DNA of 64,000 bases from the IMG/VR virus record IMGVR_UViG_3300020583_000139, positions 7,868 to 71,867 of that record. The stretch is one strand, 5' to 3'. Below, piece by piece: positions 4,623-61,523 of the stretch. This DNA comes from a virus. A program made the position numbers and the translations under genes. The notes beneath the pieces are model-generated. The model made no database searches. It was not told the origin of the DNA and was given only the letters and a program-made list of their open reading frames with translations. The stretch's first letter is position 1. Each line of letters starts with the position of its first letter.

Positions 4623-7031
4623 CTACTGAATCGTCGGGATAGCAATAACCGGATTCGACAAGCTAAAAACATGACTCGCTTTCACGGTCGGCACCGGCAA
4701 CATCGTGATTGGTATTTTCACATCCATCTCCCCGGTTACGAATGTCGAAGGAATCACCGTCCCATCAAACGTTACCGATGTTGTGACTGTGCATCCCGTG
4801 CAAAGCAATCGTACAGGACAAGAGATGTTCCAAACAACGCCATCTTGCGAGCATCCCTTTGCTGTGACGTAACTGCCAGTGGGGACAACACTAGAAATGA
4901 CGGGGATTACCACGGGAGCCGTTGGCAGAGGATAGGCCGCGAAAATAGCAGCGCCGGGCGCTGGAGGAGCACCGCTACCCCACACGATGCCCGTAGCCGA
5001 TTCCGTCATTGGCTCTACAGTCGTACGGAGATTGGTGGTTGTCCCGCTGATCGTGACAGAGCCGCCGCTGGATGTCAGACCTTTGATGATCGTAGCGCTA
5101 TGCGAGCCATCAAGCGTGACGGTCCAACTCGTCCCGTTATCCACGATAGAGGGAGTGAGATTCGATCCCGCTGAATCGCGGAACTGCACGACCACGATAA
5201 AATAATTTGTAGTCGCTCCCGGATTTGTATTGTTGGCCTCAAGTCGAAACTGGCAATTAGCGCATCCCGAGGAGTTTGCTGATTCGGTTACGGACACCGG
5301 CGCGGCCGTCGAGGGATTGAGCACTGTGTAGTAGGCGACTTGTGTCCCATCAGCACAGGTGTAGTGGTTCGAATCATTGAATGTCCACGCGACCTCGCAA
5401 TGCGATAGAAACGTCGTTGTGCGCGTCGAAACATCCGTGCCGAGCCGGTCCACGAGCAGCATGGCGGGAATGTCTCGGTAGAAGATGACTTCTCGTTCGA
5501 CATGCGTAGCATAGGGATTCTCACGCTCTGGATGTCCACTGTCGCAAATATTGTTCGTATACGTCCCGCTGATGTCGGCATCGAGGTAGAAATATGTCGC
5601 CTGTTCTTCGAGGCGCCGCATCGTCCCAGGGTTATCCACGCAATCCATCGCGCCAGCAATTCCTCCGATGACTGGAACGTTGTGTGCTAGGCCCGATTGA
5701 GTCGTTATGGTCCCGACGCTGTTGTAGCCCGCCACGAGCGACGAGTAATCCATCGTCTCGCGGATGATCGGTACACCTTTGCGGAAGGCTTGGAATGTTC
5801 CCGTGTCCCAATGCGCATGACCTGAACCCCATGTATAGCCCATTTGCAGCAAGAGCGTCATCCCGTTCGATGTCCAATTGTCCTTTGCATAGGCATAGAG
5901 CGGGCCAGAGGCGAAGTAATCCAAAGGAAGATTACTGAATGCGAGCGAAGTTCCGCCAGGATCGATGGACGCGAATATCGGCCCGATGGCTGGCTTGACC
6001 GTCGAGAGCCATGTGCGCGCTACCTTGCCAGCAAACTGTGAACCAAACTCAGTAGCGGCTCCCTGCATGAAGTCACCATACAGTTGAGATTCGGCGCCAC
6101 ATCCTCCGGTAGTGTTCGTGTTCCCGGTCGAGTTGTGGCTGATAAACCCGCAAGAGTTACCGCTTACCCAATTCTCGTCATCGCTCCAGGTGAACATATC
6201 CCATAGGCCACGGGATGTTGTCACGGACGGCATGGTGTTGTAGATGATTTCGTAGATGTCTCCCGTAAAGGCTGTCGTGGAACTGTCAATCCACAGGTCG
6301 CGTCCCATTTGTGATGTGGCGGAATTGATGAGCGCGAAATAATTTTGGCAGTAGCGACCGTATTCTCCACCACCTTCTTGCGAGTGGAGAGCGTAGCCGT
6401 GCGTTCCAAATGTCCCCGTCCCTGATGGCGATGCAAAGTTTAAGAGCGCGGGCCAGTCCGTGTTCATCGCGTAGTCGATATAGCTGCTGGCAGAAGCGTT
6501 GTCCGTGTACGTGGCGATTCCGAAAGTCAGATCGCGCCGAATGGCTCCGCAAAAATAGTTGGAACTCGGTCCCGGGGTGGTCGTGTTGCCCCAACCGACG
6601 CCGTGCATGTTCGTATTCCAGGTGTTCCAGTTCCCCCAAAAAGTGGATTTCTGTCCCGAGGTCCACGAGCTGTACGCCCAATCGTAGATGAGCATGTAGA
6701 CTTCGCCCTGCGTCCGCATGTCGTCGCAGCCGGTAGTCGTCGAGCACGCGAGATCATTGGCTCCTGTAGCGTAAGTGATAGCCGTCGAACAAGCCGTGGC
6801 GTTGGACATCACGAGACAAGCAAACGCGTTATCGTAGGCGTCTAGAGGACGCGTGTTGGTAGTAAGAGCGGTGTAACTGGTCGACGTCACCCAAGACTGG
6901 GCTGCGGTCAATCTGGAAGATGTCCAATAAATTCGGGGATGTGCAGAAGGAAAAGTGATCCCATCAACGGTAGTCTGTGCGAGCACTGGAACTGCCCAGA
7001 GAAAAGCAAGCGCAAATAGTATCCGTTTCAT
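4623..7031 (-). CDS. secreted heparinase II/III-like (polysaccharide lyase-like) protein
   Basis: Sec signal MKRILFALAFLWAVPVLA; HPRI N-terminus, EGGGEYG, GHAHWDTGTF and AHNV motifs. Confidence 0.65.
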   Translation of the reverse strand: MKRILFALAFLWAVPVLAQTTVDGITFPSAHPRIYWTSSRLTAAQSWVTSTSYTALTTNTRPLDAYDNAFACLVMSNATACSTAITYATGANDLACSTTTGCDDMRTQGEVYMLIYDWAYSSWTSGQKSTFWGNWNTWNTNMHGVGWGNTTTPGPSSNYFCGAIRRDLTFGIATYTDNASASSYIDYAMNTDWPALLNFASPSGTGTFGTHGYALHSQEGGGEYGRYCQNYFALINSATSQMGRDLWIDSSTTAFTGDIYEIIYNTMPSVTTSRGLWDMFTWSDDENWVSGNSCGFISHNSTGNTNTTGGCGAESQLYGDFMQGAATEFGSQFAGKVARTWLSTVKPAIGPIFASIDPGGTSLAFSNLPLDYFASGPLYAYAKDNWTSNGMTLLLQMGYTWGSGHAHWDTGTFQAFRKGVPIIRETMDYSSLVAGYNSVGTITTQSGLAHNVPVIGGIAGAMDCVDNPGTMRRLEEQATYFYLDADISGTYTNNICDSGHPERENPYATHVEREVIFYRDIPAMLLVDRLGTDVSTRTTTFLSHCEVAWTFNDSNHYTCADGTQVAYYTVLNPSTAAPVSVTESANSSGCANCQFRLEANNTNPGATTNYFIVVVQFRDSAGSNLTPSIVDNGTSWTVTLDGSHSATIIKGLTSSGGSVTISGTTTNLRTTVEPMTESATGIVWGSGAPPAPGAAIFAAYPLPTAPVVIPVISSVVPTGSYVTAKGCSQDGVVWNISCPVRLLCTGCTVTTSVTFDGTVIPSTFVTGEMDVKIPITMLPVPTVKASHVFSLSNPVIAIPTIQ

Positions 7032-7405
7032 TGTAGCGTTACAGTCGAGGCCGCAACGATGCCGCTTTTAGGGATATTTAAGGTCACTACTCCGCTTGAT
7101 ACCGTGGCCGCTGCACAGCCTGAACCTGTGGCATTGCAGACTGTGATCCCCGTTACACCAGCGGTGACCGATCCTCCGACTTGTGTGAATGTCGCTGTCC
7201 CGTTCACCGAGAGCCACAATCCGGAGTCCGCAGCGAAACAAAAAACGGTCGTCGATGTCACTGCGGCGCACGATGCATGTACGGAGACATAGGAAAATTC
7301 CACGGCGGTCGTCGTCTGCGCGTGAACCGGACGCAACCAGGAATCAAGCAGTGCTCCTGTGAGTATCAGCGTGAGTGCTACGAATACCGCAAGCAATCTC
7401 TTCAT
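7028..7405 (-). CDS. small secreted Cys-containing protein
   Basis: signal peptide ending PVHA/Q; GGAG RBS. Confidence 0.7.
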   Translation of the reverse strand: MKRLLAVFVALTLILTGALLDSWLRPVHAQTTTAVEFSYVSVHASCAAVTSTTVFCFAADSGLWLSVNGTATFTQVGGSVTAGVTGITVCNATGSGCAAATVSSGVVTLNIPKSGIVAASTVTLQ

Positions 7406-9528: not shown

Positions 9529-11276
9529 TTTACGATCTTTCCACCTTGGATGAGTTTTCCACCGATACTAAGATTGGGTTGTGGTCCTATGGGTGCAGCT
9601 TTGTAAGCCACACCTACATAGTTAATGCTTGTCAAATTTCCGCTGTTGTGCAGCACTATCGTATTGTTCACCGTCGCCGTGCTCGGGTTGTAGTAATGGC
9701 TGTAGTAGTCGGCTGCGTCGTTGCCGCCTGTGTCCGTCTCGCCCAGATAAAACATCGTGTCGAGCGGACCGGGGCTGCCATTATCTGGAGGCCCAGTACC
9801 GAACGCTGCGCTAAAGATGATGAGTCCATTCTTGGTCGACGGAGTAATGCTGGGAAGATTTGTCTGGTTCGTCTCCACTAGGTTAGTGGTCGTCGCATGA
9901 GATGCCGCCGTGGTTCCTCGCAAGCCACGAGAAATTGTGAGTGTCCCAGTTCCACCTCCAGAAGTTACCTGAATGATCTCACTTTCCCACATAAGAAAAT
10001 CGTTGTTGGCGATGGTGTTGGTGTTTACCGTGACGGTAGTATCCGTCGCGATCCTGGATTGTGTTGTCGTGGTGGCCGCAGTCACAGTAGTGCCATTTCC
10101 CGCAACGGTGTCGAATGGGGATGTAGCCGCACCGGATACACAATAGAGCATGTGCGCCCCACCGCTTGGTGTTCCAGTCTCGCTGATGGTGGTCGTCATC
10201 GTACTAGTAAGTGAGAGAGTACCATCGTCGCTGGAATAAACCTGCGATGTGTCGTTCGCATCGATCGAATGCTTTGTCAGAGTCTTTGTCGGATTCGCGA
10301 TGACCACGCCGGTCAAAGCGTCTTGGTTGACTCCAGCGGAATGAACAAAGATAAAGTGATTTGGATTGCCGAACCCGCACGGCACATTGACTGTCTGTGG
10401 GTAGGTAGCGCCAGGGAAAACATGGAAGATGCTACGGACGATGATACCAGCCGCGAAGTCCGACCCTTGCGAGGCGGGATTGAATGCCGCAGAGACCCCC
10501 ATGTTGTCGGTGTCGGTGTCGCCAGAGACTGTGATACCAGGGTTAATCGCCGCCGCTGTGCTCTGTACAAAGAACTGCGCCCACGAAATGAGCGCCGAGC
10601 CCATACGGTTACCTTCAAGCAGAGTGAAGCTCGACCCAGCGGTGAACCCGGTGGCGTTCGGCGCGTTGCCGGGGAAACCGCCGTTCGCGTCCATTCCAAA
10701 GTTTAGTATCAGGGTTCCGTTGACGGACGGCGTGAAGCTACCGGACGACATCGTTGGGCCGGTGAGCCCCTGAGCGCTGCCAGTCCCTTTCAAAGTACAG
10801 TCCGTGTTGTAGGACACGACTGCCATGCGCTTGAAGTTCAGAAGCGTCGAAGCGAAGTGAACCTTAATGAATTGAGTTCCGGCTACCGTCCCGCCCAAGG
10901 TGTACCAAATGGCGCTGTCGTTCGTAGTGCCGTTACCCGTGTTGCTTTGCTTTTTGGCGAGCGTCCAAGTGTTCTGGGTGCCGAGGTTGGACGCGCCGGG
11001 ACCACCCGGAGACTGAAGGTCAGTTATCGTAGGGTCCGTCGCAAGGTGATTGTAGGTGAGGAACAGCACCACGCAATCGTTCGTCGGAATGGCGTCGAGG
11101 TTGATGTTGAAATCATTACCGACTTCATTTCCTGCGTTCGAGGCACTATCGACAAATTGGATGATCGTCGGTGTCTGCGCCGAGCAGATAATCGGGAATA
11201 AGAAAAGCAGTAGTAGAAACCATACTCTCTTTATAGTCTGAATTGACTCCCTCGTCTTTATGGTTGCAACGTACAT
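9525..11276 (-). CDS. secreted Thr/Gly-rich beta-rich protein (fibre/adhesin-like)
   Basis: signal-like [19 protein letters not shown]; E.I.VT...LTISRG..GT.A..H module; exact start uncertain. Confidence 0.65.
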
Positions 11277-14200
11277 GAAGTTCCTCGGTAAATTGTAATC
11301 GAGTCGCTTGCGCTGCCCGTCAGCACCATAATATTCAATGTCGTTGCGCCTGCTCCTTGCTCAATCGTACCCCAAATATCAAATACAAAAATGTCGGCCA
11401 CGGTGCCAATCGCTCCTGCTGCGCTAGGAGTGAACCCAGTACCGCCAATGTTCGTAGCGGTTGTGGTGGTTAACGTTGGCAGCGTGCCATCAACGCCTGT
11501 AACTGCAAGTCCAGTGCTTATTCTGTCCGCGGCATAAATATTCGTGGGTGCTGTAGTTGTTGCTTGAATTCCAAAAAAGTTAGCCGCGGCAGCCGTCGCT
11601 TGGGAATAGGAGCCGTGGCAAACGAATGAATAATTGTGATTCGTAGCCGGTAGAGTCCACGTTAATCCAGTGATCGTTACCAGCGATGTGCTGGCTGTCG
11701 TGAAGTTGGAAGCTACTTGAACCGTGTTCCCTGTGCGAATGAAAGCTGAACTGTTTCCGGCTGTCCCGTTGCCGACGTCCACGATGCCTGCGGCATCGCG
11801 CGAGAGTCCGGTATCCGCATTCCAGTTGTAAACGGTCCCACTGGGCAATTGCAGAGAATTGGAAATCGTGATCGGATTTGTGGATGTACCGGCAACCGCT
11901 GGAGCCGTGAAGGTAGCAGAGCCGCTCGTCGAGCCGGCGAGCGCCAAAATTCCACTGCTCGTGCCCGCTAAACCAACAGTGAGTGTGGGTGCTGAAAACT
12001 GTAATTGTGTCGTAATGCTTTCCGTCACGACGCCAGAAGAATTTGACCAAATAGGAAAACCCGTAGCCGCCGCACCCGGCAAAGTCAACGAATAAGCAGT
12101 AACCGAAGTCGGAGCTTGCTCGATGATCGTATTGGCTGGAATGTTCGTATTCGCAGTAGTGTTCGTCGAACCTTGCGTGAATCCGACGAAACCGGCCGTC
12201 GTCCCCGCAACGGAAACGACTCCCGCAAGGCCCGCGGTTCCGCTACCACCGGTTCCCGCCGCGCCTGGCGTGAGCACTATGTTCCCGCCGTTAGCATTCG
12301 CGCCCGTGCCTGACCCAGCCCCGCCGTTCCCTGCCGTGAGGTTGACCGCACCACCTGCCCCACCGGTCCCCGCCGTTGCTCCGGATGCCGCGCCGCCCGC
12401 TCCAGCGTTAAGTGTCACAATCGAGCCCGCGCCCGCCGTGCCTGTCGCGGTCGTGTTTGCACCGCCAGTTAAGCCGCTCACAAGGAAAAGAGTCCCCGCT
12501 GATGGGCTAGGCGTAGTCGAGGATGAGGCGATAGCCGTGCCTTGGATGACAAATTCCCCAGTAGCACCAGCCGTGCCAGATCCCCCGATACCGGCTTTGC
12601 CAAGAGTTACCGTGAAATTTCCGCCACTCGCGTTCGTTCCGGTACCCGCCGAGGCTCCCCCGTTGCCAGTAATAAAGGCGAGTGCGCCGCCAGCACCACC
12701 CACGGCATTGGTACCCGTGCCCGCTCCGCCGATGCCCCCATTTAGGGATACGCCGGAACCCACACCGGCTGTACCAGCCGCATTCGACGATGGACCCCCT
12801 GCTACCCCAGAAACGTTGAAAATCGTTCCTGCAGCCACGCCAGTCGCATTGGCCGTAGATGCTGGCGCGTTGCCAGTAATCTGGAACTGACCAACCGTTC
12901 CAGCGGTTCCGGTCGCGCTATTCGTCCCAGGTGCGCCCAGCGTTACTATGAAACTGCCGCCACTACCTGCGGTCGCCGCGCCCGTGCCGCCGTTGCCGCC
13001 CGCTCCAGTCGTCCAGGAGACCCCGCCGCCGTTGCCGCCATTGTTTGTAGCGGTTCCTCCCGCGGCGCCGCCCGCTCCAGTCGTCAAGGTGAAAGCGCCA
13101 CCCGCTCCTCCAATACCTGTAGTCGCGCCGCCCGCCGAGCCCGCGCCGGTCAAGAGCGTAATGGGAGCGCCGACGCTGCCCGCATTGCTTGCACCAGACG
13201 CGCCTCCCGCTGCTGCCGCCGAGATACTTAGCACAGCCGGTGCGTTTGCGTTTGCTGGTCCTGCCGCGCCCTGCGTGATTTGCAGAGCAATGGCTGTCGT
13301 CGTTGTGAGAGTGGTGATCTGTGTTTCCGCTGCTCCTGCGGTCGTCGCCGCTGTCGTCTCGCCCATCGTCACGCAAGTTGTGCCGCTCGTGAGCGCGCAG
13401 TTGATGGTCAAAGGATTGTTGCCGTCCGCTATCGCCGCAATCGCTCCGGTCGCACTGACCACCTGATTGATCGGGATATTCGGCAAATCTCCAGCGACAA
13501 GCGCGCATGGCGTAAATGTCGTTGCGGCTCCGCATGTCCCAATAACTTGATGTGAAGTTTGACTAGTAGCAGGTGTGATCGCCACGACGCCCGCGCTAGA
13601 AGTTACCGCCGCCGAAAGCCACGATGGAACTGTTATCGATGTTGCTACCGTCGCAGAACCGGTTGGCAAGGAAAGCGTAGTGGAACCCAAGGCACCAGTT
13701 ACGGGTGACAGAGTGATGCTGCCGCTCGTTGCATTCGCAAAGGCTAACGTTCCGACTGTTGACCCTGCTACACCAAGAGTCGGTGTTGCGGTGAACGCGG
13801 GACCCGAGCCAGCAAGAACTTGACCAGCCGCGCCAGTAATCGACACGGCACCTGCAGCGCTTACGGCTATCGGTGCAGTCCCCGTGATTGCGCCGCCCCC
13901 ACTCGACGTCACGCAAGTCGTGCAGGTGATGTTGCCAGTCGCTGTCGTAATAGCGAGAGGCGAGGACGCGGTGACTGCGGGTGTTCCCGAAGAGGTTCCA
14001 GCCGTCCATGTTGGCGTGCCTGCCGCCGCCTGAGTTGTGATGGTCAGAGTTCCGCTAGTTGTCCCAAGGATTAAGAGGTTGCCCTGCGTACCCACCGCGC
14101 CAAGAGAAATCTGTCCAGCCGCTTCGACGACGTTTGCCAAGCAGGATACCGCTGTGCCTGTGGCTGCATAGTAAGCGACACCACCGTTGGTCGCGCAATT

Positions 14201-17200
14201 GTTTACGGTGCCACTTCCTCCGCCGCCTGTCGCCAGCACGACCGCAGTATTCATTTGGATCAATGGAAGCGTCGTACTAGCCGTGAAGGTTGTCCCATCA
14301 GGTAAAGTCCAAGCCCCAGATGTAGCCATCACGATTCCAACTGTCGCACCCTGCGCGTTGGTGCAGCTCGAGGTACCAGCCGAATCCGTGACTTTGCCGG
14401 CAGTCGAGCCGGCGCAAACCGTATGTCCAAGCGTTACGGCCGCACTCGCGTTGACGGGGATCTGCGCATCGGTAGCGACTTGGACGGTATTTGTGTTCAC
14501 GAGTTCGGCGATGCCAATCCATGACTGTGGTGTAGCTCCGCAATCAGCTACCGTCATCGCCGCGGATTCGCATTGGAGGTTCCACTGGGTAACGGTCGTA
14601 CCTTTGACATAGATAGCGAGTTGAACAAAAAGACCTTGCAAGCCTTGAGTTGCACCAGTACTTGCGCCAGGCAAAAGTTCGATATTCCCACCTGCGCTCG
14701 TCGCATTTGTTGCTGCGTTTGTACCACCTTCAAGGAGCACGCCGCCACCAGCCGCGGTTGCGCCGCCTGCGCCGGTTTCATTTGCGCCACGCAGCGTCAA
14801 ACTCCCAAGAACGGAATTCGCGCTGGCATCTTGTCCACCGGAGATCGACCAACTTTGTGTCGTAGTCGTATTATTCAGGAGATTTGAACTGTACTGAATC
14901 GTAGTGGTCTGGCTGGCTTGCGAACCCGCGCCAGTCATCAAGGCATTGGAAGTTAAGGAAGCCGCCGAGGTTACACAGGTCGCGCAAGCAATCGTGCCCG
15001 TGGTCGTAATTGTTCCGCCTGTGATCGGACTCGTTGTGGCGATACTCGTGACGGTTCCAGAGGCATTTCCTGCTTGGCCTTGCATCTGCCAGTTTGTTCC
15101 ATCGAATTCAAGCAGGCTGTCTGTTCCCACCAAGAGGTCATTGGCGATCAAGTTGGTCCCACCGGCTTGTTTTTTGATCGTTGCAGCGGATGTGCTATTC
15201 ACATTCAGCGTTGCCGAACCTGTGTTTGCGACATCCGCTTGGAAGAGAATTATGTCTCCATCGACAGGAGTGAAGGATGGAGAAGTAGAGCATGTATAAG
15301 CCGTCCCCGAGGCTGAGGCCGCAGCACAAGTCAAAACAGAAGAAACGCCGTGCGCTGTAGCTGCAATGAGTTGTTTGCTTGCGTTCGTGCCGATGACTCC
15401 CGCCGACGTTGGAATTGCCGCACCCTCGATCTGGACAACGGTAGTCGCAAGCGCTCCTGCGGTATTCGTGACATCACCCGTGAGAGCCGGGAATCCGCTC
15501 GCCTGCAAACGCCCATTCGCATCGGTGGGGAGAATTTCCGCGCTCCACCAGTTTGTGTTATCGCTCCACCAGAAGGCACATTCTGGATTGCTGCCCGAGA
15601 CAGCACCCAAGAGTTTCAGTGCGGCGTTGCCGTTCACTGTCGATGTCGTTGGTGTGTCCGTGGCCACAACGGTTCCGGTATTGCAATGCACGAATGCATA
15701 GTTACTGGCAAAACCGCTTGAACCGGCCTGTGCAACCGTGACAGCCGTGGAGGTAGTATTATTTGTCGTCAACAAAAGCGTGACGCGATCCGTTGCGGGT
15801 GTCGTCGAGCCGGTCGATTGCCCAACGATAGAATAGGTAGCGCCAGCCTGTGAATCGGTTGGGACTCCGGGGAGGTTACAGGTCGGCGCCACCGCAGCGC
15901 TGGCAGTCACGACAAATCCGCAGTTGTACGAACTGTTTGTCGTCGGCGAGTTCAGTCCGGTCAGCAAACCACCGCTGCCAGCATAGACCAACGCATCTTG
16001 CGTGAGCGCCGAATCGGTCACATTTGTTCCGGTGATTCCGCCTGCCGAAGTTACCGTTGCGCTCGTCGAGCCGAGATTGAGCGTACCCAGCGTTGCGGTC
16101 ACCGAAAGTACAGCACTACCGCTAGTGGCGCCGTTGAGCGTCAAACTTCCAGGCAGGACCATGGCGCCGCCCGCGCTCAAGGTTGCTGTTGCTGAAGGCG
16201 TCTGCGATCCTTGGCTTCCTGCGCCGGTCATAATTGCCGTGCTGGTCAAGGATGCAGCACTAGTCACGCACGTCGCGCAAGCAATGGTTCCCGTTCCCGT
16301 GATCGTGCCGCCCGTGATCGGTCCGGTCGTCGCAATGCTTGTGACCGTGCCAACAGTAGCTTCATCGATCGTTGCGAAATAATTGGTTCCATCCGAAACA
16401 ACGTAAGCGCTTGTCGGAGCCGTGGAAGACCCAGCATTTAGCGTAACGTTAGCGGCCACTCCATTGATGTTTTGCCCGTTGCGTCCGATTGTAACCACGC
16501 CGCTGCCATAGTTCACGACATTTATGCATTGCCCCGAGGCGGGCTGAGATGCAGAAGAAACCAAGGTGATCGTGAACGTCCCGGAGGCCGCAGTAATCGT
16601 CTTGCATCCAGAAAAATCTGCCGCCGTTGCCGAATAGGTCGTCGTCTGTGGATTCACTACGAATGGTTGATCGGCGACGAGTTGTTTCGAGCCATTGGTA
16701 CCAATGAAGAAAGTAGACACGGGAATCGCCGCTCCCTCGATCTGCACGACAGTTGTCGCCATGGATCCGGCCGTGGTGACATCTCCGGACAGATTTGAGA
16801 CTTGCGAACCCTGGCCGCCAGCGCCAGCCATGATTTGACCGGAAATCAAAGCCGAGGCTGAAGTCACGCACGTTGCGCACGCTATTGTGCCGCTCGAAGT
16901 GATTGTGCCCCCAGTGATGGGCGAAGTAGTGGCAATACTCGTAACCGTGCCGGACCCGATAGGCGCATTGCCAATCGTATAGAACTCCCAATAAGTGCCA
17001 TCATAGGTCGCGAGCAAATACACGCCAGCTTGCAAATCTCCCGATGCGAGCGTCGAAGTCCCTTGCCATTTACGGGCATGGACCGCTGAAGAACTGTTTA
17101 CGTTGATCGTTACGTCGCCAGTATTCGTCGTGGTTGTTTTGTAGATGATCGTATCGCCAGCCGCGGGCGTGAAACCCGGTGAAGATGTACAACTTTGCGC

Positions 17201-18946
17201 AGTTCCCGATCCGGAAGAATCCAAGCAAAGATTGGGAGCCGCGAGGTTGTGAGCCGTATCGGTAATCAGTTGAGCGCTGCCATTCGAACCCAGAACGCTC
17301 GCGCTAGTGGGGATGACCCCATTATTTACTTTTCCTACGGTCGTCGCGAGTGAGCCGGCACTGTTGGTCACGTCCCCCGTAAGTGCGGGGAAAGCTGCTG
17401 TGGGAAGTGTCGTCGTGGGGACGCAGATTTTGTTGATGCCCGTATAAGCGCAGATTTGATTTGCTACAGCATTCGAGGTCTGCGTGACGAGATTTGTATA
17501 GAGAACTCCGGAATCTAGCAAAATTGTTCCTGTGGTATTCGAGAACGCAGCAACATCGTTCGTCGTCGAGCTTCCAGGCCCGCTTACATTGCCACCGCCT
17601 GTGGGTGTCGCCCATGTCGCATCGCCACGCCAGAAAGTCGTGTTACTTGCTCCGGAACCGCCATTCAGATTGCTGACTGGTAGATTTCCGGTGACACCTC
17701 CGTTCCCCGAAGTAGCCAAGTTGATTGCGGGGACCTGCGCAGCCACTAATGCACAAAACGTTGGGGCAGCCGTTAAACTCGTGCAATTTCCGAAAACCGT
17801 ATTTGCGCCTTGCGTGTTCAGCGCGAAAGACAAGGCTGGCGTCGTCGTTGCCGTGGCCACTGAGGTCGTAAAAAGTGGGGAGAGAGTTCCGGCCGTAAAA
17901 GTCGTCACAGTGCCGTTCGTGCCGTTCGCGGCTGCGGTGATTAAGCCCTTGGCGTTTACTGTAATATTCGCGTTCGTGAACGAACCCACATTAGAGTTGA
18001 CCGTTGCGAGAGTCGTCACGCATGATCCCGCAGTGGTTGTGATGTCCCCGGTGAGTGCGGGAAAGAATCCGCAGCCAAGCGTTGCAGAAAGCGAACCCGC
18101 TGAACCCGTAGTGTTCTGGTTGAACGTCGGGAAATTCGTCATGTTAGCCGCGCTGATCGTCGGCGCGGTTTGGTAGCTCGGGACACCGGCACCGCCCGTG
18201 GGTGGACCTGCCAAGACAGAATTCTGGGCTGCGTTAGTCAAAGTAAAACTAAGCGCTGGTGTCGTGGTCGCCGTGGAAACAAACGTGGTAAAAATTGGGG
18301 ACAGATTACCCGCGCTAAAAGAAGATACCGTTCCACCGGTTATCAAACAGTTGCCACCAGAACTTGTAAGGCAGGTCAGTTGACTTGTTCCCGCATTTAT
18401 ATACAGCCGGAAGTTTCCCGCTGCGGGGTTACTTGGTGTCGAGATCCCCGTGATGTCCTGAAAGCTGCTGCCAATGCCTCCGGTGAATGCGCTGCCGCCT
18501 GTTCCTCCACCGCTGCGCGCGAACTCCGTCCAGACCGTACCGTTTAGTACCAAACTTAGGGAATTCGAAGTAGCGCATGACCAAGAAGAGTTGACGAGAA
18601 TTGTTGCGGAGTTTGCGACAGTCGTAAAAGTATCACTGGGTCCGCAGAGCAAACGAAGAGTCTGATGCGGGAAACCACCTAGAAAATTGGTAATCGTAGT
18701 TGCGCCGGTATTTTGCGTAATCCAGTTTGCTTGCTGCGAGATCGTAGGTGTTGTGCCAGTCGGAAGATTTGCCGCACCCCCGAGAATAGAATCGATCAGG
18801 CTCAGATCATTGTCGATGGGGACTTGCCAGTTTGTGGACTGGTAGGCAGGAATCACCAATTGAATATTGGGCGTGATGGTTTGGCCTTGCCCATAAAGAG
18901 TATTCACCACAAGCAAGGTTAAACAGATTAGAGTTGTTTTTTTCAT
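11258..18946 (-). CDS. giant (2562 aa) secreted fibre/adhesin-like protein with internal repeats and a Gly-rich region
   Basis: signal peptide; repeated GTVTSIATT...CATCVTS and FPALTGDV modules; GxGG-rich segment. Confidence 0.8.
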
Positions 18947-45716: not shown

Positions 45717-45748
45717 GCTCGCGGGGAATCCCGCAAAGGAGAAACTTG

Positions 45749-46432
45749 ATGAGCAGAGCAAACACAGCCGTCGCGATGGTCCCCAAAGGAGAAACTGGCA
45801 AGGTTATTCCAATAGTGCGGCCAACCATCAGTCATCTGGTCGCAATGATCGAAGGCATCACGCCACTTCTACAGAATCCGAAAACTGCGGATTATCTTCA
45901 GGCAATTGAGAATCCCGGAGATGCTGCACCGAGCAACAAAGTGAAAAATCCAGATAAGGAGTATAAGGATCGTTTGCGGGCCAGCAAGGGATTGTACCTG
46001 CACCCGGTCGAAGCATTCACTGGCCGCAAGGGAGTATTCCAATCAGCGGCTAAGGTGGCGCGTCTTCGCAAAATCAATTCGAAGATCGTAATGACTGGCA
46101 TAAAGATTGAACATGATCTCTTGTCCGAATTCGCTGATGGCATTCGGCCCTACATCGTCATCAACAGCAAGAGCGGCCCTGTCAACGACAAACACATTGC
46201 CGAGATCGAGAAAATGGGACGCCACATCCCCATCCCGATTTATCGCCCTCGCTTTGATGACTGGTCTATGGAACTCCGTATTTCCTATTGGCCGAGCCTT
46301 GTCAGTCTTTCAAACTTGATGTCACTTCTCGCTACGGCGGGGGAAATTGGCATTGGGTCCTATCGACCTGAGAATGGTGGAACCTTCGGGACGTTCAAGG
46401 TTTCATCGGCGCGGGAAGTTCCAAAGTTTTAG
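45749..46432 (+). CDS. solo Cas7/RAMP-like protein (Vipr-like effector)
   Basis: I.GITPLL.N first strand, P..AF..., YRP.F..W...., C-terminal glycine loop AG.IGIGSYRP..GG.FG.F.V; pentamer repeat array begins right after the stop codon. Confidence 0.75.
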   Translation: MSRANTAVAMVPKGETGKVIPIVRPTISHLVAMIEGITPLLQNPKTADYLQAIENPGDAAPSNKVKNPDKEYKDRLRASKGLYLHPVEAFTGRKGVFQSAAKVARLRKINSKIVMTGIKIEHDLLSEFADGIRPYIVINSKSGPVNDKHIAEIEKMGRHIPIPIYRPRFDDWSMELRISYWPSLVSLSNLMSLLATAGEIGIGSYRPENGGTFGTFKVSSAREVPKF

Positions 46433-46680
46433 CAGACTCGCAGCTAAGCGGAGCAAAGCCATGCGACGCTTGGCGTAGCCGAGCCTAGCAAAGCAAAGCC
46501 GAGCCTTTCAAACCCAAAGCGCAGCCAAGCTGAGCGCGGCGCGGCAGAGCGAAGCGCGGCGAGGCCAAGCGAGGCCTAGCACTTGCAAAGCACTTCAAAC
46601 TCGAAGCCTAGCGAAGCGAAGCCGAGCTTAGCCGAGCAAGGTTTAGCGAAGCAAAGCCAAGCATGGCCTTTCAAACTCGC
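46433..46680 (+). ncRNA. AGC-NN pentamer array 1: three guide-like segments (13, 15 and 13 units)
   Basis: strict 5-nt periodicity; delimiters TTCAAACCCAA (46507), TTCAAACTCGA (46594), TTCAAACTCGC (46670); leader CAGACTCGC. Confidence 0.8.
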
Positions 46681-46703
46681 ACCAATATTTTTAAGGAGGA
46701 TTC

Positions 46704-47294
46704 ATGGACAAAAGTTCAAAGACTTACATCCCGGCCCCTGGTTTCCACTTGTCGAGAACTGAAGCCAATAAGATCGGCAAGGCAATTGACATCTTTCTGA
46801 AAAAAGCTGGACGCGAACCAACGGTTGAGGAATTCGCAAAAGTGACTCGCGCCAGTTCCAATCCAGCCCATGCGGTCGTGGCTAAGAAATACAGAGAGAT
46901 GACTCGCACTGCATGGGCAAATGCCGCCGATTACTGCATTCGTGGTGTTGATGTAATATGGGTCTCCAGTGGCGGTGAAACATCGGCTCCTTCGAAGGCG
47001 TTCTACATTCTACAAATTCCAACAAGTGCGCCTGCTAGTTCCGAGGCAAGACTCATTTTGTCTCAGGGACAAGTAGCGCAATCTGCCGAAGCGCTGGCCA
47101 GCCAGGAATCGCTCATGCGCCAAACAATCCGCACGGCCTTTTGTGACTTCGCTGTCGTAGCCGGATTTGTGAAAGCGCGACAATCCGTGCTACTCCTTCT
47201 CAGCGAGTTGAAAGTACAATCTAGGGCGGAGGTGCATCATGGTCAGAAGGTGCGCACGTCGCAAGTGCGGCGTAAAATTCACACCGCGCATTAA
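46704..47294 (+). CDS. accessory protein of the RAMP/repeat locus
   Basis: AAGGAGG RBS; T.EE.......SNP.H.........A...A...IR pattern; sits between the two arrays. Confidence 0.7.
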   Translation: MDKSSKTYIPAPGFHLSRTEANKIGKAIDIFLKKAGREPTVEEFAKVTRASSNPAHAVVAKKYREMTRTAWANAADYCIRGVDVIWVSSGGETSAPSKAFYILQIPTSAPASSEARLILSQGQVAQSAEALASQESLMRQTIRTAFCDFAVVAGFVKARQSVLLLLSELKVQSRAEVHHGQKVRTSQVRRKIHTAH

Positions 47295-47379
47295 GTCACA
47301 ACGTTTCCATTCTCCGAAATGCAAGAATGCGGAAGCGCAGGCAAGATTTAGGACACGAAGCGTAGCGAAGCCAAGCTGA
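47239..47379 (+). CDS. 46 aa Zn-finger-like protein (not in ORF track)
   Basis: GGAGGTG RBS; MVRRCARRKCGVKFTPRIKSQRFHSPKCKNAEAQARFR...; C-x4-C...H-x3-C. Confidence 0.65.
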   Translation: MVRRCARRKCGVKFTPRIKSQRFHSPKCKNAEAQARFRTRSVAKPS

Positions 47380-47481
47380 GCGAAGCCGAGCGACGCCTAG
47401 CGGAGCGGAGCGAAGCAATTCAAACCCAAAGCGCAGCGCAGCCTAGCATCGCGCAGCCTAGCACAGCGAAGCGAACTCAAA
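47359..47481 (+). ncRNA. AGC-NN pentamer array 2: two guide-like segments (12 and 9 units)
   Basis: same periodicity; TTCAAACCCAA delimiter at 47419-47429; ends ACTCAAA. Confidence 0.78.
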
Positions 47482-48318
47482 TCATGCGGCCAGTTTTTGG
47501 AATCCAGAAAGTTTTATGAATTGACCGCGAGTTACCCGGAGAATTCGTCCTCCCGTGAAACATTTCGTGGGCCACGCGATAATATCCAGCGAGATGAGCG
47601 GCAAAAAGTTACAGCGGCAATTTGGGAATTCGCCAGCCAATCCACGTCCAAGAGTGGAGGGTTGTCCGATCAATGCCTCGGGCTGAGGGGGATCATCAAA
47701 GCGCATTAGCGCGCCATCTAGATTTTTGTGCGATGGTCTTACGCGCTGGTCCTTTGCCGTAATCCATTGTCCCCATTGAAGCCCTAAATCTTCTGCTCTT
47801 GCTCTTGTTAATGCCGTGCTCGCTTTTGAAGTTTCTGTCCGTGCAATCAATGCGGCCCGCGCCTTGGTAATCTGCGGGACTTTCTTCCGTAGATAATCTG
47901 CAATTGTTTCTGGTCGTAGACCTTCGAGTTGTAGTCTAGAAATTTCATTGTTCACTTCTTGGCGAATCGTAGCGGGAATCGAAGAGATAAGTTTGGCATT
48001 CTCGGCGACGAGTTCGTGGACGCGCTGGCCTACGCCGGTTTCCATTTCCTTTTGTAAGGCTTCGAAGATTTCACGTCCGCGGCTGGCTTCGCGCGCGGCC
48101 TCCCGCCAAGATCGTGCATTTACCACTTTGATTTGCGTGACCATGCGCCGCGCGATCGATGCTGCAAGGGATTCCAGTACCTCGGGAGTGCGTGAAAGAT
48201 TGGCGAAGGCTTGGAGCACGCTGTCAGGCGTGAGGTCATCAGGCAGGAACTTTCCTATTAGCTTTTGTATTAGCCTGCGATATTCCGTCTCGATGCGGTT
48301 TGGAGGATCGAACGGCAT
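47482..48318 (-). CDS. minor head morphogenesis protein (Mu gpF/SPP1 gp7-like)
   Basis: RA.LIARTE.SK, W.T..D.RVR.SH..L.G, G..PNCRC. Confidence 0.9.
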   Translation of the reverse strand: MPFDPPNRIETEYRRLIQKLIGKFLPDDLTPDSVLQAFANLSRTPEVLESLAASIARRMVTQIKVVNARSWREAAREASRGREIFEALQKEMETGVGQRVHELVAENAKLISSIPATIRQEVNNEISRLQLEGLRPETIADYLRKKVPQITKARAALIARTETSKASTALTRARAEDLGLQWGQWITAKDQRVRPSHKNLDGALMRFDDPPQPEALIGQPSTLGRGLAGEFPNCRCNFLPLISLDIIAWPTKCFTGGRILRVTRGQFIKLSGFQKLAA

Positions 48319-52770: not shown

Positions 52771-54744
52771 TTAGCTCCTTATCATCTGCGGTCGTTTCTT
52801 TGTCGCGAGAACGCGATCTATAAACTTTCCAACTGGCAGAATTTCCATTGAACCAAAATGCTCAGGCCGGTCATAATTCGAGTAGAACGCAGCGCGTGCT
52901 TCGGCTTGCGAACCAAAATTAACGAAACATTTATCCTCATCGAACTCCATGAAGTCGGGTGCCTTCATTGTGTGGATGACGTAGACTTCCTCTGAGTTTG
53001 GGTCAGGCCCTACAAATACGTCAACGTGGTCCCCATCGGTGCCTCTCGTGTTGCGCAGGTACCCGTAGTCGTGAGTAAGTGTCACTTCCCAATCGTTGCC
53101 GCCTTTGTCTTTGCCCTTGCGCGTCGAGCCAGCTTCATTCTCAATGGAGATATCCAGTCCGTGCCACACGATGCGTTTATGTAATGAGCGCGCATCTGCG
53201 ACGACCGCATCTGCAGCACCCGTTTTGCGCAGTATGGATTGAGGACGTTCAGGATGACCAGGACTTGGTCCTTTACCTTCGATGCCAGCGAGCAACTCCT
53301 CGCCAGGCAGTTCAGGTTCCTCTTCGGCCTCGTTAATCTGTTCGTCGGTAATGTTTGTGAAGACATTCGTGGTTTCGCCCAAGGCTTGCAATTCTTGCAT
53401 GGCTGTTTTGCGGCCTATCACGCCCGAATCGTAAGCAGCAAGAATCGGTGCAGAGGCTTTCGTAACTAGCTCTGCTTTTTCTTCCTCGGTGAGTACGCGG
53501 ATCGACGGGAAAGACATATCCAAGTCGTCCGGAACTTCGCCAAAATCACTCATCAAGATTACGGGGAAAAGTTTGTCCAAGTTAGGGCGCAGATGGTTGC
53601 TTTGTTCTTTTGCAATGCGCTGCTCATAGAGGAGTTCGTCGGAATCGTTTGTTTGTCCCAAGCCAGTGATGGTACGGCCAAAAAGATGCGTGATGGTATC
53701 TTCGGCTGCGCCCGCCACATCCATCTGGAACTGTTGATAGACTTCGCTCATGCCGGCGAACGAATACTGGACCGCTTTCATGTCGCCATCTTTACCAAGG
53801 ATGAGCATGGACTGATTCGAGAGGATTTCATTCTGTGCCTGAAGCACACTGGCGAGTCGTTGTTGTGCCTGAGTGCCAGCGCCTAGTCCAGCGAGAAATT
53901 GGTCAAGAGTGGGATCGACACGCGCAATAATATTTGCGCGGAACATGAGCTGCAAGATCGACCAAGATGCATTGTCCTTTTTCCGTAGTTCTTCATAGAC
54001 CAATTCGAGGATCGAAATACCCCAATAGAGTTGCGCCTGGAGTTCTGGCGTAGGAATCTCTGGACCTGTAAATCTCAAGATGCGGCTGGAATGCACGCGG
54101 AAGTTTTGACCTTTGTCCTGCGCGTAGCAGTTGTAATATTCTGGTAGTCCCCATTCGAGAGGATGCCGCAAGTTTTCCGAAAGTTCGCTATCTTCGGGCC
54201 AGATGCCTACCCAACGATCAAACGGGATGAGTCCTAGATAACTACCTGGGTTCACGTCATCTAGGTCGAGTGGCTCTGCGAGAATCTTTTCGTGGCCTTT
54301 GATGACAATAAGCGCGCCCGCTCCGCCGTAGAGTCGTGCCCACTTCAAGGCTCGGCAAATGTTGTATGGCGAATATGTGCGCTGAATCGTCCGATTGAAA
54401 GTCTTGATATCCTCTGGGTCAATATCGGACACGAGCTTTGGCCATGCTCGTACCATATCCTCGGCTTTGCCATCCACGATTCGGCGCGCGAGCCAGTGAT
54501 TTCTGTAAAGCGTCAAAAGTAACCAGTAATTATTTGAGAGCCGGACCATTTCATAATCCGTGCCCTCAGTCAAAGATGGGCTACCCCATCCCATCCTGGC
54601 TACCATGTTCACGAAATAATCGATGCCGGTTTGACGGAGAGGATCGGTCGCGTCTGTCGCGACTCCATTGCCATTGGCGTGACCGTTTTTCTTGGCTTTG
54701 GCGATGCGGTCGCGGGCGATGCGCTTTTTGGTTTTGGCTCTCAC
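52771..54744 (-). CDS. portal protein (DUF1073-like) fused to a C-terminal inorganic pyrophosphatase-like domain
   Basis: LYR..W.ARRIVD..AEDM.R, WARLYGG, VH.SR...F.G, LFG....G; C-terminal IEN..GS.R, YGY...T.G.DGD.VDVF.G, DE.K. Confidence 0.88.
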   Translation of the reverse strand: MRAKTKKRIARDRIAKAKKNGHANGNGVATDATDPLRQTGIDYFVNMVARMGWGSPSLTEGTDYEMVRLSNNYWLLLTLYRNHWLARRIVDGKAEDMVRAWPKLVSDIDPEDIKTFNRTIQRTYSPYNICRALKWARLYGGAGALIVIKGHEKILAEPLDLDDVNPGSYLGLIPFDRWVGIWPEDSELSENLRHPLEWGLPEYYNCYAQDKGQNFRVHSSRILRFTGPEIPTPELQAQLYWGISILELVYEELRKKDNASWSILQLMFRANIIARVDPTLDQFLAGLGAGTQAQQRLASVLQAQNEILSNQSMLILGKDGDMKAVQYSFAGMSEVYQQFQMDVAGAAEDTITHLFGRTITGLGQTNDSDELLYEQRIAKEQSNHLRPNLDKLFPVILMSDFGEVPDDLDMSFPSIRVLTEEEKAELVTKASAPILAAYDSGVIGRKTAMQELQALGETTNVFTNITDEQINEAEEEPELPGEELLAGIEGKGPSPGHPERPQSILRKTGAADAVVADARSLHKRIVWHGLDISIENEAGSTRKGKDKGGNDWEVTLTHDYGYLRNTRGTDGDHVDVFVGPDPNSEEVYVIHTMKAPDFMEFDEDKCFVNFGSQAEARAAFYSNYDRPEHFGSMEILPVGKFIDRVLATKKRPQMIRS

Positions 54745-59718: not shown

Positions 59719-61038
59719 TTATACGCGAGTAAGAAGTTTCGGTTTTAGCCCCATTTCATGGAGGCGCTCGAGCGTGACGGCCACATAGTTTGGTTCTATC
59801 TCCATTCCGTAACAAATACGATCAGTTTGCTCGGCCGCGCAGATTGTAGTGCCGGAACCAGAGAACGGCTCGTAGCAGATTTCTCCCGTTTTGCTCCATG
59901 CTTCGATAACAAATTTAGATAGTTCTACAGGAAAAACTGCTGGATGCCCCTTAGTATGAACTCCTCTCGCAGCTTCCCGGTTGATGCGAATTACGGAATC
60001 CGGGATTTTGTGGTCCTGACCATAGAGTTCAGGAGAGCAAGCAGTATGAATTCGACCATCAGGATGACGTAGCGCATCTTTCTTCGCTCGGAATTTCTGC
60101 GAGTTTGGTTTCGTTGGAATTATTTTGTTTGGTTTCTGCCGTTCACGATTGAAATGAAATACAAATTCATGGGATGGCGCAAGTCTTCCCATCCAGTCTC
60201 CAGGCAAGCCACTACCTTGATCCCACACATAAAAACCAAATTTCCGCCATCCGAGTGTACGCATGTGGTTGATCCATGAATCCCAATACGAAAGCCATTC
60301 GCAGTCCCGATGAACAAGTCCTAAGTTGATTAAGACCTGCGTATTATCATCTGCCGGCAATGCGTCGGACATTGACTGCATCATCGCATCCCAGTCGAAA
60401 TCCTTTCCTTCATAATTACGCTGCTCGAAATAGGGGGGGGATGTGAAAACCACCTTCGCAAGTTCTTTACTCATTAGAGATGCAACGTGTTGTTTCGATC
60501 CCGCATCTCCGCACATCAGACGATGCCGACCGATTCCCCATATTTGCCCTAGCCGTGTTTTCCACTTTCTTGCGAGTTTCGATGCAATATCATTCTTTGG
60601 ATGTGGAACGCCGCTTTCTTGAGGTGTGGCCCAGAACTGCACTAGTTCGCGATCATCCCAGAAAGATGATAAATCCAAATCGAAATCAAGTTTCAAGTCT
60701 TTCAATAAATCGGTATTCCAGTCTAGATTAATTTCACTTGTGCGATTGTCGGCGATGGCGAGTTCTCTTGCTTTTTTTGAATCAAGGTCAAGGTCTGTGC
60801 GCTGAACCACGACCAATTCTTTGCCATCGGTTTCTACGACACGGATACGACCACCTTTCTTTTTGATTGCTTCTAAAGTTTTATTTCCCGCTATGACGCG
60901 ACCGGAACGATCAATTAAAATGGACCTACCCGCGCCGTATTTCGCGAGTGATTCTGCAATCATTTTTCTGCCGCGGTCTGTGCCGAGATTGGCATTCTTG
61001 TTATCCAGTCTCAAGTCTGTGATCGATTTTATTTTCAT
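59719..61038 (-). CDS. ParB-like domain fused to N4C/N6A DNA methyltransferase
   Basis: N-terminal SL..YG..RSILID...IAGN...LAIADNR; FTSPPY, HPA.FP, EPFSGSGTT, GMEI.P.Y. Confidence 0.9.
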   Translation of the reverse strand: MKIKSITDLRLDNKNANLGTDRGRKMIAESLAKYGAGRSILIDRSGRVIAGNKTLEAIKKKGGRIRVVETDGKELVVVQRTDLDLDSKKARELAIADNRTSEINLDWNTDLLKDLKLDFDLDLSSFWDDRELVQFWATPQESGVPHPKNDIASKLARKWKTRLGQIWGIGRHRLMCGDAGSKQHVASLMSKELAKVVFTSPPYFEQRNYEGKDFDWDAMMQSMSDALPADDNTQVLINLGLVHRDCEWLSYWDSWINHMRTLGWRKFGFYVWDQGSGLPGDWMGRLAPSHEFVFHFNRERQKPNKIIPTKPNSQKFRAKKDALRHPDGRIHTACSPELYGQDHKIPDSVIRINREAARGVHTKGHPAVFPVELSKFVIEAWSKTGEICYEPFSGSGTTICAAEQTDRICYGMEIEPNYVAVTLERLHEMGLKPKLLTRV

Positions 61039-61039
61039 G

Positions 61040-61523
61040 TTATGTCCACACGAGCTCCTTTTCAAAAACATGCTTTCCAGTCTTCGTGAATCCAGTGTGC
61101 CGCCATCCAGCGCGAAGATAACATCGGCCTACTGGAAAAGGGCAGAACTCAGCACCTCGTTTTTTTTTGTGTCCCGAGTTTGCGAGCATCGATAAATGTA
61201 TAGGCTAGTCCTGGTCCCCATTTTGTGACCGCCAGTCTTTCGGCTTCAAGAATGATGGAACTTGCTTCGCGACACGATTCGTTGCGGAAGATGGCGCAGT
61301 TGTATCCAACGCGACCGTCCATCCGTTTATCGTCTTGCGGCCACATCCACACAAAGAGAATCGTGCCTTCCGCGTTCCGTAAAACCAACTTCCGTCCTGA
61401 GTAGCAGAATTGTTTCTTCCCAATGCTTCCCGGTCGTCGTGTGTAGTGACGATCTGCAAGCGCACGGCACTCTTGGTCAAAGTGGTTCGTGCGGATTAGA
61501 CCGTCTGTGAATGCGAGAAGCAA
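61040..61523 (-). pseudogene. Mom-like (GNAT) DNA-modification gene interrupted by a frameshift at an A9 tract
   Basis: LADRHY.RR..G..QF...G..LVL, FRNE....S..I.EA; the G.CY..AGW...G.TK.G end lies in the next frame after A9 (61160-61168). Confidence 0.7.

Follow-up and report, generated by a model that had tools for sequence, protein, structure and literature searches.

Introduction

VIPR, a CRISPR-related DNA silencer, was published in 2026 (bioRxiv 10.64898/2026.04.26.720920). According to that preprint, its guide RNAs (vrRNAs) consist of 9-16 GGY-NN repeats followed by a tail; they associate with the protein Vipr and recognise double-stranded DNA, leaving out one target base for each repeat. 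The same preprint reports that the 1-nt skip rule and its alignment with the wobble position were shown experimentally, without a PAM, for GGY systems, that the natural targets lie for the most part in coding sequence of rival phages and satellites, with the skip base at the wobble position, and that reprogrammed guides silence reporters and phage genes, with the NN dinucleotides setting target specificity. All seven VIPR types are given the same repeat code or a related consensus there, and alternative repeat classes (NNNGG, YNNNG and NNNNG) and staggered arrays are described as well (bioRxiv 10.64898/2026.04.26.720920).

The described system closest to the locus reported here is the Type II VIPR of Escherichia phage SUSP1, the Vipr protein of which has PDB entry 36pp (bioRxiv 10.64898/2026.04.26.720920, 10.64898/2026.04.26.720927). 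According to the VIPR structure preprint, one protomer binds each repeat and the skipped target base is held between the thumb and a helical bundle; the first G of the repeat is read by H17 and D177, the second G by R138 and W178, and the pyrimidine by a pocket that includes R179. A third VIPR preprint gives resistance to synonymous change as the rationale for skipping the wobble base, and describes solo vrRNAs of satellites that redirect a foreign VIPR.

The window analysed here, by which we mean the whole stretch of 64,000 nucleotides, is a segment of a phage genome from a soil metagenome, and the virus record from which it comes is 71,867 bp long. We suggest, by homology with SUSP1, that five tracts of tandem pentamers in this window are very probably the guide-RNA genes (vrRNAs) of a phage-borne VIPR system. 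The locus is far from the coliphage and Pseudomonas VIPR systems that have been studied, and a recently described class of RNA-guided DNA binder is thereby confirmed, from raw sequence, in an uncultured soil phage.

Array architecture

The five tracts lie at 46442-47474 on the + strand and comprise 62 units in total. Together with the genes around them, they are arranged as follows.

45746-46432, + strand: predicted vipr gene, 228 aa, Cas7-like RAMP (TTG start as listed; evidence from PDB, profile and AF2 model)
46442-46506, + strand: putative vrRNA guide tract G1, 13 units
46507-46517, + strand: separator TTCAAACCCAA, 11 nt; register shift +1, no stable fold
46518-46593, + strand: putative vrRNA guide tract G2, 13 units to 46582, one extra base and two doubtful units
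46594-46604, + strand: separator TTCAAACTCGA, 11 nt
46605-46669, + strand: putative vrRNA guide tract G3, 13 units, one of them the canonical GGT
46670-46680, + strand: closing motif TTCAAACTCGC
46704-47294, + strand: 196-aa gene, candidate accessory (vap) gene by position only
47359-47418, + strand: putative vrRNA guide tract G4, 12 units
47419-47429, + strand: separator TTCAAACCCAA, 11 nt
47430-47474, + strand: putative vrRNA guide tract G5, 9 units
47475-47483, + strand: degenerate closing motif ACTCAAATC, which abuts the stop of the gene listed next
47482-48318, - strand: Mu-F-like head gene, convergent to the tracts

The units were read in fixed register from their coordinates, without a pattern filter. 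Position 2 is G in all 62 and position 3 is C in 61, with a single T; position 1 is A in 49, G in 8, C in 3 and T in 2, and the conserved triplet GGY known from VIPR is accordingly not the consensus of the window. The two remaining bases of the pentamer, NN, are hypervariable and take 14 of the 16 possible values (GA 13, CT 8, AA 7, GC 7, CA 5, CG 5, GG 3, TT 3, AC 3, GT 2, TG 2, AT 2, TA 1, AG 1, CC 0 and TC 0). This reading reproduced exactly the NN strings and counts that had been listed in the original prediction. The 13 units counted there for G2 also stood, but the two further ones (AA and AC) placed at its end are doubtful and resemble a degenerate separator; the best reading of G2 is 13 units with a decayed separator copy behind them, which makes the tract lengths 13, 13, 13, 12 and 9. 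Tandem pentamers of three conserved and two hypervariable bases, 9-13 units per tract, thus lie next to the vipr gene and the gene that follows it, on the vipr strand. The four-unit AGCNN pattern AGCNNAGCNNAGCNNAGC matched 17 times in the window, every time within 46442-47472 on the + strand, as against a mean of 0.02 and a maximum of 1 match in 100 dinucleotide-preserving shuffles, and the pentamer periodicity is far beyond chance.

Every tract ends in TTCAAAC, which is degenerate after G5. Between abutting tracts this motif is part of an 11-nt separator, TTCAAACYCRA, that moves the repeat register by one base. The fold energies of the 11-nt motifs in the window range from -0.6 to -2.6 kcal/mol; a structured 3' tail does not follow the window tracts, and the conserved 11-nt motif stands in its place. 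A coding repeat was considered and rejected, there being no open reading frame that spans the tracts and only a 59-aa frame with a TTG start that overlaps part of G2-G3. A search of the tracts against Rfam gave 0 matches at E <= 1, a promoter and terminator consensus scan of the locus stayed at chance level, and comparison of three DNA runs with the locus returned the same sequence only.

The Vipr protein and its first-base pocket

The gene that ends 9 bases before G1, on the same strand, encodes a protein of 228 aa whose single phmmer match in the PDB is the SUSP1 Vipr (36pp_D, E 3.7e-4). A 12-sequence profile, built from this protein, five metagenomic homologues and six open reading frames beside AGCNN arrays in viral contigs, matched 36pp at E 3.5e-28, with residues 1-191 of the 202 in the chain covered; the second-best match in the PDB was at E 0.16. 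The AlphaFold (AF2) model of the protein (pLDDT 83.8, pTM 0.77) found its top Foldseek matches among the effector complex subunits of CRISPR types VII and III, with a best E of 3.7e-6 and 70 matches at E <= 0.001. In the alignment, the G-loop motif GIGSYRP of the window protein, including the arginine of YRP, falls on its SUSP1 counterpart. From the profile matches and the model, the gene product is predicted to be a Vipr protein with a Cas7-like fold, and because the protein beside the tracts is a Vipr, the locus is assigned to VIPR.

The protein also matches phrog_4652. Its identity to relatives outside its own small clade is about 20% at best, and close relatives of either the 228-aa or the 196-aa protein were absent from the viral contigs. 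A search of genome contigs gave 2 distant matches in archaeal MAGs, without a clue to the host, and tblastn against isolated phages gave one weak match, to Pseudomonas phage LESphi2 (E 1e-4). Among 1.84 billion sequences, the profile search found 8,183 cluster representatives at E <= 0.001, which puts the predicted family of Vipr-like proteins among the large ones.

The positions that read the repeat in SUSP1 are partly kept. In the alignment, R138, the aromatic residue at 178 and R179 are conserved as R167, Y206 and R207, while the two readers of the first G, H17 and D177, are replaced by N44 and S205. Both replacements are invariant in the six closest homologues, and an Asp at the D177 position was found in 0 of 12 aligned AGY-associated proteins. 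As far as an alignment can tell, this residue pattern fits a change of the first repeat base only, and the AGC repeat is accompanied by replacements at precisely those two residues that read the first base, which offers a hint on how repeat specificity is set. Such specificity bears on the parallel use of several VIPR systems, and on the ways in which phages and satellites evade one another's guides or take them over. Across the family as a whole, the D177 position was tallied by a rough motif match in 155 Vipr-like proteins (motif found in 129, absent in 26); the residue was E in 70, A in 22, D in 16, S in 13 and some other in 8. The pocket for the first base seems variable across Vipr proteins.

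Further comparison places the locus close to SUSP1 in several respects. Both have a small RAMP protein, which the profile matches nearly end to end, in a phage-borne locus, and in both the pentamer tracts, of 9-13 units here, flank a second small gene on the strand of vipr. The window locus differs from SUSP1 in its AGC rather than GGY repeat and its altered first-base pocket, in having 11-nt unstructured separators instead of a 40-60-nt pseudoknot tail, in its 196-aa neighbour, which has no detectable relative, and in its source, a soil metagenome phage. When re-registered, the repeat unit reads CNNAG and fits the YNNNG class among the published alternative VIPR consensus sequences. The window guides also abut with a one-base change of register, as in the staggered VIPR arrays; judging from the figure legends of the preprint, those have a bare 1-nt overlap, whereas here the shift comes with a conserved 11-nt motif. 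The AGC repeat, the pocket change and the 11-nt separators are probably variations within the diversity sketched by the VIPR authors. The Cas7 backbones of class 1 CRISPR systems (type III Csm3 and Cmr4, type VII Cas7) provided the best structural matches of the model and share with the VIPR family the use of one protomer per guide segment and periodically flipped bases. Unlike class 1 CRISPR systems, the VIPR locus lacks a 6-nt-periodic contiguous guide, and CRISPR repeats, cas1, cas2 and other cas genes were not found near it.

By analogy with the published systems, one Vipr protomer would bind each repeat, bury its three constant bases and present the two variable ones. The NN would then base-pair with one strand of double-stranded target DNA, every third target base being flipped out, and the bound filament would silence transcription of a competing mobile element. 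For a coding target matched in frame, the base left out would be the wobble base, and the guide would read codon positions 1-2 and tolerate synonymous change. The 11-nt register-shifting separator probably ends one filament and starts the next, and a guide layout so nearly tail-less bears on how filaments start and stop.

It is possible, if rather doubtful, that the locus represents a distinct AGY-reading, tail-less branch of VIPR, in which a pocket changed from His to Asn and from Asp to Ser would re-specify GGY to AGY and filaments would be stopped by the short 11-nt motif that shifts the register, in place of a folded 3' tail. Were this the case, there would be a natural orthogonal repeat code, with two VIPR systems not loading each other's guides, and the sense-strand bias of the NN would mean that guides prefer pairing with the template strand.

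Related loci

A pattern of six AGCNN units was found at no fewer than 119 loci in viral contigs, many of which are plain microsatellites. Among 25 of these loci that were compared, 6 have a homologue of the 228-aa protein beside arrays with varied NN. For 5 of these, longer flanking sequence was compared, and in all 5 the arrays adjoin vipr on its own strand, either just before it or just after it. Two of these relatives (L166 and L167, in records G004 and G005) have, after each AGC-type array, a hairpin tail of 54-60 nt with a fold energy of -18 to -27 kcal/mol, with the conserved AGGCTAC.AAGTAGC and GGTATTCG on its flanks; the hairpin is preserved even though the two loci have different stem sequences. 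As the hairpin tail follows the arrays, in the published order of a variable tract and then a structured 3' tail, the transcribed strand is thereby fixed.

Five related loci together provided 324 units, with A at position 1 in 289 of them; the pattern used in collecting these units forced G and Y at positions 2-3, and only position 1 is informative on the repeat consensus. All 16 NN occur among the 324 units, including CC (23), TC (17) and TA (16). The absence of CC and TC and the single TA, to which the original prediction had drawn attention, are thus true counts for the window, but the absence is a small-sample effect, since the related units have both.

One further AGC-type VIPR relative (L164, record G006, oriented 6527-7095) carries 11 or more guides in close head-to-tail succession; its tracts mostly end in AGCAG and the next tract starts one base out of register, as in the published description of staggered arrays. 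Other loci (L003, L005, L007, L014, L017, L024 and about 20 more) are (AGCAG)n microsatellites of 6-23 copies, in most cases followed by the conserved ACTTG(C/T)(G/A)TTGACGG. Many viral contigs contain them, and a single IMG/VR sample number appears in most of the contig names. These microsatellites are not guides because they lack varied NN, and may be a copy-number-variable element.

Codon reading and target searches

The original prediction had proposed that the variable dinucleotides read like codon positions 1-2 of protein-coding targets, as wobble-blind guides. The mechanism so proposed is the published VIPR mechanism, and the protein places the locus in VIPR; for a codon reading of these particular guides, however, the searches described below returned no target. 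Nor do the plausible peptides that had been offered in its support distinguish it, as almost any NN string yields such peptides. For the window NN, a model of sense codon positions 1-2 of the phage genes scored -238.0 bits and one of antisense positions 2-3 scored -237.6, compared with -244.0 for genome dinucleotides and -248.0 for a uniform model. The composition of the window NN is thus weak evidence, as it fits antisense positions 2-3 as well as it fits sense positions 1-2.

With the 324 related units, sense codon positions 1-2 were the best of six phase models, at +32.9 bits over uniform when each locus was scored with its own open reading frames and at +22.8 bits with the CDS model of the window phage, where the next best phase stood at -6.4. 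A composition-only model fitted to the same units reached +54.6 bits, which is an upper bound and exceeds the codon model; the pooled composition therefore expresses compatibility with codon reading, not proof of it. On homology and pooled composition, and not on targets, codon reading at the window locus may be regarded as partly supported.

Targets were sought under the 1-nt skip with exact core patterns, 9 units long for the viral contigs and 10 for the genome and metagenome contigs, and the rest of each guide was then scored. These scans returned 0-9 loci each, as follows.

G1, viral contigs: 6 loci, 2 independent sites; best 20/26, a five-locus group at 19/26
G2, viral contigs: 3 loci; best 24/26, with the skip bases on codon position 1 of a 463-aa gene of typical GC3
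G3, viral contigs: 0 loci
G4, viral contigs: 2 loci; best 22/24, in frame within the end of a 154-aa ORF; an HTH_3 gene lies next to this ORF, and the phage is complete, with 69% GC
G5, viral contigs: 1 locus; 18/18 by construction, probably out of phase
G1, genome contigs: 3 loci; best 23/26, in frame, in an ORF of a bacterial MAG
G2 and G3, genome contigs: 0 loci each
G4, metagenome contigs: 9 loci, 6 distinct sites of 64-71% GC in unrelated contexts, four of them at 22/24

The MAG open reading frame that holds the best G1 match looks sulfotransferase-like by eye, and a family search with it gave no match. The G4 match in the complete 51-kb phage (L126) was rejected as target evidence because three other unrelated sites of 64-71% GC also reach 22/24, and because that phage shares one weak protein match with the window phage; a score of 22/24 is not rare for the G-rich G4 pattern. 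Also rejected was the G5 match (L128), since its 18/18 arises by construction with a chance expectation of about one, and the longer open frame at the site is out of phase.

As a control, the reversed G1 core was scanned for and matched 9 loci, which fall into some three sequence groups; the real G1 core matched 3. The gapped-pattern search that the original prediction had put forward thus gave no enrichment with exact cores and this one reversed control, and the matches it had expected to fall in frame were, at their best, in unrelated genes, with the best G2 match out of frame. The matches of the reversed control (L150-L157) lie in groups of homologous genes that differ at the wildcard positions. 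The control having matched wobble-varied homologues, multiple wobble-varied matches are by themselves no proof of targeting.

Self-targets were not found in the 71,867-bp genome with skips of 0-2, and a skip of 3 found only the tracts themselves; the preprint reports that self-targets are likewise absent in other VIPRs (bioRxiv 10.64898/2026.04.26.720920). Comparison of the guides with the related vipr proteins and VIPR loci gave nothing above shuffles, and 31 guides, from the relatives and the window, gave nothing in all the retrieved DNA beyond the loci that had been retrieved by pattern. Several guides did not converge on either of the records that hold the best matches (G001 and G002). Overall, exact cores and one control yielded no convincing natural target for the window guides, which is a weak test in both directions.

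Alternative explanations

The results of these searches bear on whether the locus, while VIPR, is of an AGY type that follows some other targeting rule, be it a different skip length, non-coding targets or no alignment with the wobble base. Such a rule would sit well with the differences in repeat and first-base pocket, with the 1-nt skip rule being one tested on GGY systems only, with the failure of the scans to find an in-frame natural target and the out-of-frame position of the best G2 match, and with the equally good fit of the window NN to antisense positions 2-3. However, the thumb arginine (R138, here R167) and the aromatic residue and arginine of the G-loop are kept, the profile match is nearly end to end, and the pooled composition of the related units puts sense positions 1-2 ahead of every other phase by 29 bits or more; in addition, the one repeat code or related consensus that the preprint gives to all seven types argues for a shared rule. 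We consider a different rule unlikely. The solo vrRNAs described in the third preprint as redirecting a foreign VIPR raise the further thought that the window tracts are decoy or competitor vrRNAs that soak up the Vipr of a rival phage, and the exact-core scans, which found no targets of the window guides, would agree with it. Yet the window tracts are not solo arrays, because the cognate vipr lies 9 bases upstream on the same strand, and the related loci share this layout, which makes a decoy role very improbable.

TRAP binds (G/U)AG triplets in the trp leader, an RNA that resembles the window tracts in having triplets read by protein, a two-base spacing and about 11 repeats. A comparable model, in which the RNA wraps an oligomeric protein that reads the AGC triplets only and the NN are neutral spacers, would account for the layout of triplets and 2-nt spacers in tracts of 9-13 repeats, and the diversity of the NN could be drift. 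The adjacent protein is, though, a Vipr or Cas7-like RAMP of unrelated fold and not a TRAP-like ring, and the spacer bases carry information here: the NN composition of the relatives is codon-like rather than neutral, and in VIPR, according to the preprint, the NN are shown to set target specificity. The neutral-spacer model was dropped when the neighbouring protein proved to be Vipr, and is the least probable of the readings considered. Guide-RNA genes of a phage-borne VIPR system thus remain by far the preferred reading of the tracts.

Genomic setting

The window contains the head genes of the phage, namely those for the portal, the large terminase, a Mu-F-like protein and a head protease, and the putative VIPR locus forms a small island, mostly of + strand genes, between the protease and the Mu-F-like gene. 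The 196-aa gene that lies between G3 and G4 has a good ribosome-binding site, the sequence AAGGAGG 7 nt before its ATG. It has no Pfam or PHROG family, no homologue in a word-indexed search, and no likeness to the accessory open reading frames of the related loci (phrog_15946 and phrog_5926); a structure look-up in the Atlas gave clusters of viral hypothetical proteins at TM 0.56-0.60 and only weak winged-helix matches.

An open reading frame of 46 aa at 47239-47379 on the + strand has a GGAGG site of its own, lies in another frame than the end of the 196-aa gene, and overlaps the opening units of G4. It shows similarity to a CGNR zinc finger (Pfam E 1.2e-4 and 22.2 bits, below the 24-bit cut-off) and to phrog_10853 (E 0.0018), and may be either a small partner of the locus that binds nucleic acid or a frame open by chance.

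Elsewhere in the window, the portal gene (52771-54744, - strand) combines a Phage_portal_3 match at E 7e-86 with a C-terminal InPase domain (PF18823, E 2.6e-36), and this stretch gives matches to large virion proteins in PHROGs as well, including one that bears the label DarB-like antirestriction. The gene at 59719-61071 on the - strand has a ParB-like N-terminal domain fused to an N6/N4 DNA methylase (PF01555, phrog_498), and the structural region includes, at 11258-18946 on the - strand, an open frame of 2,562 aa.
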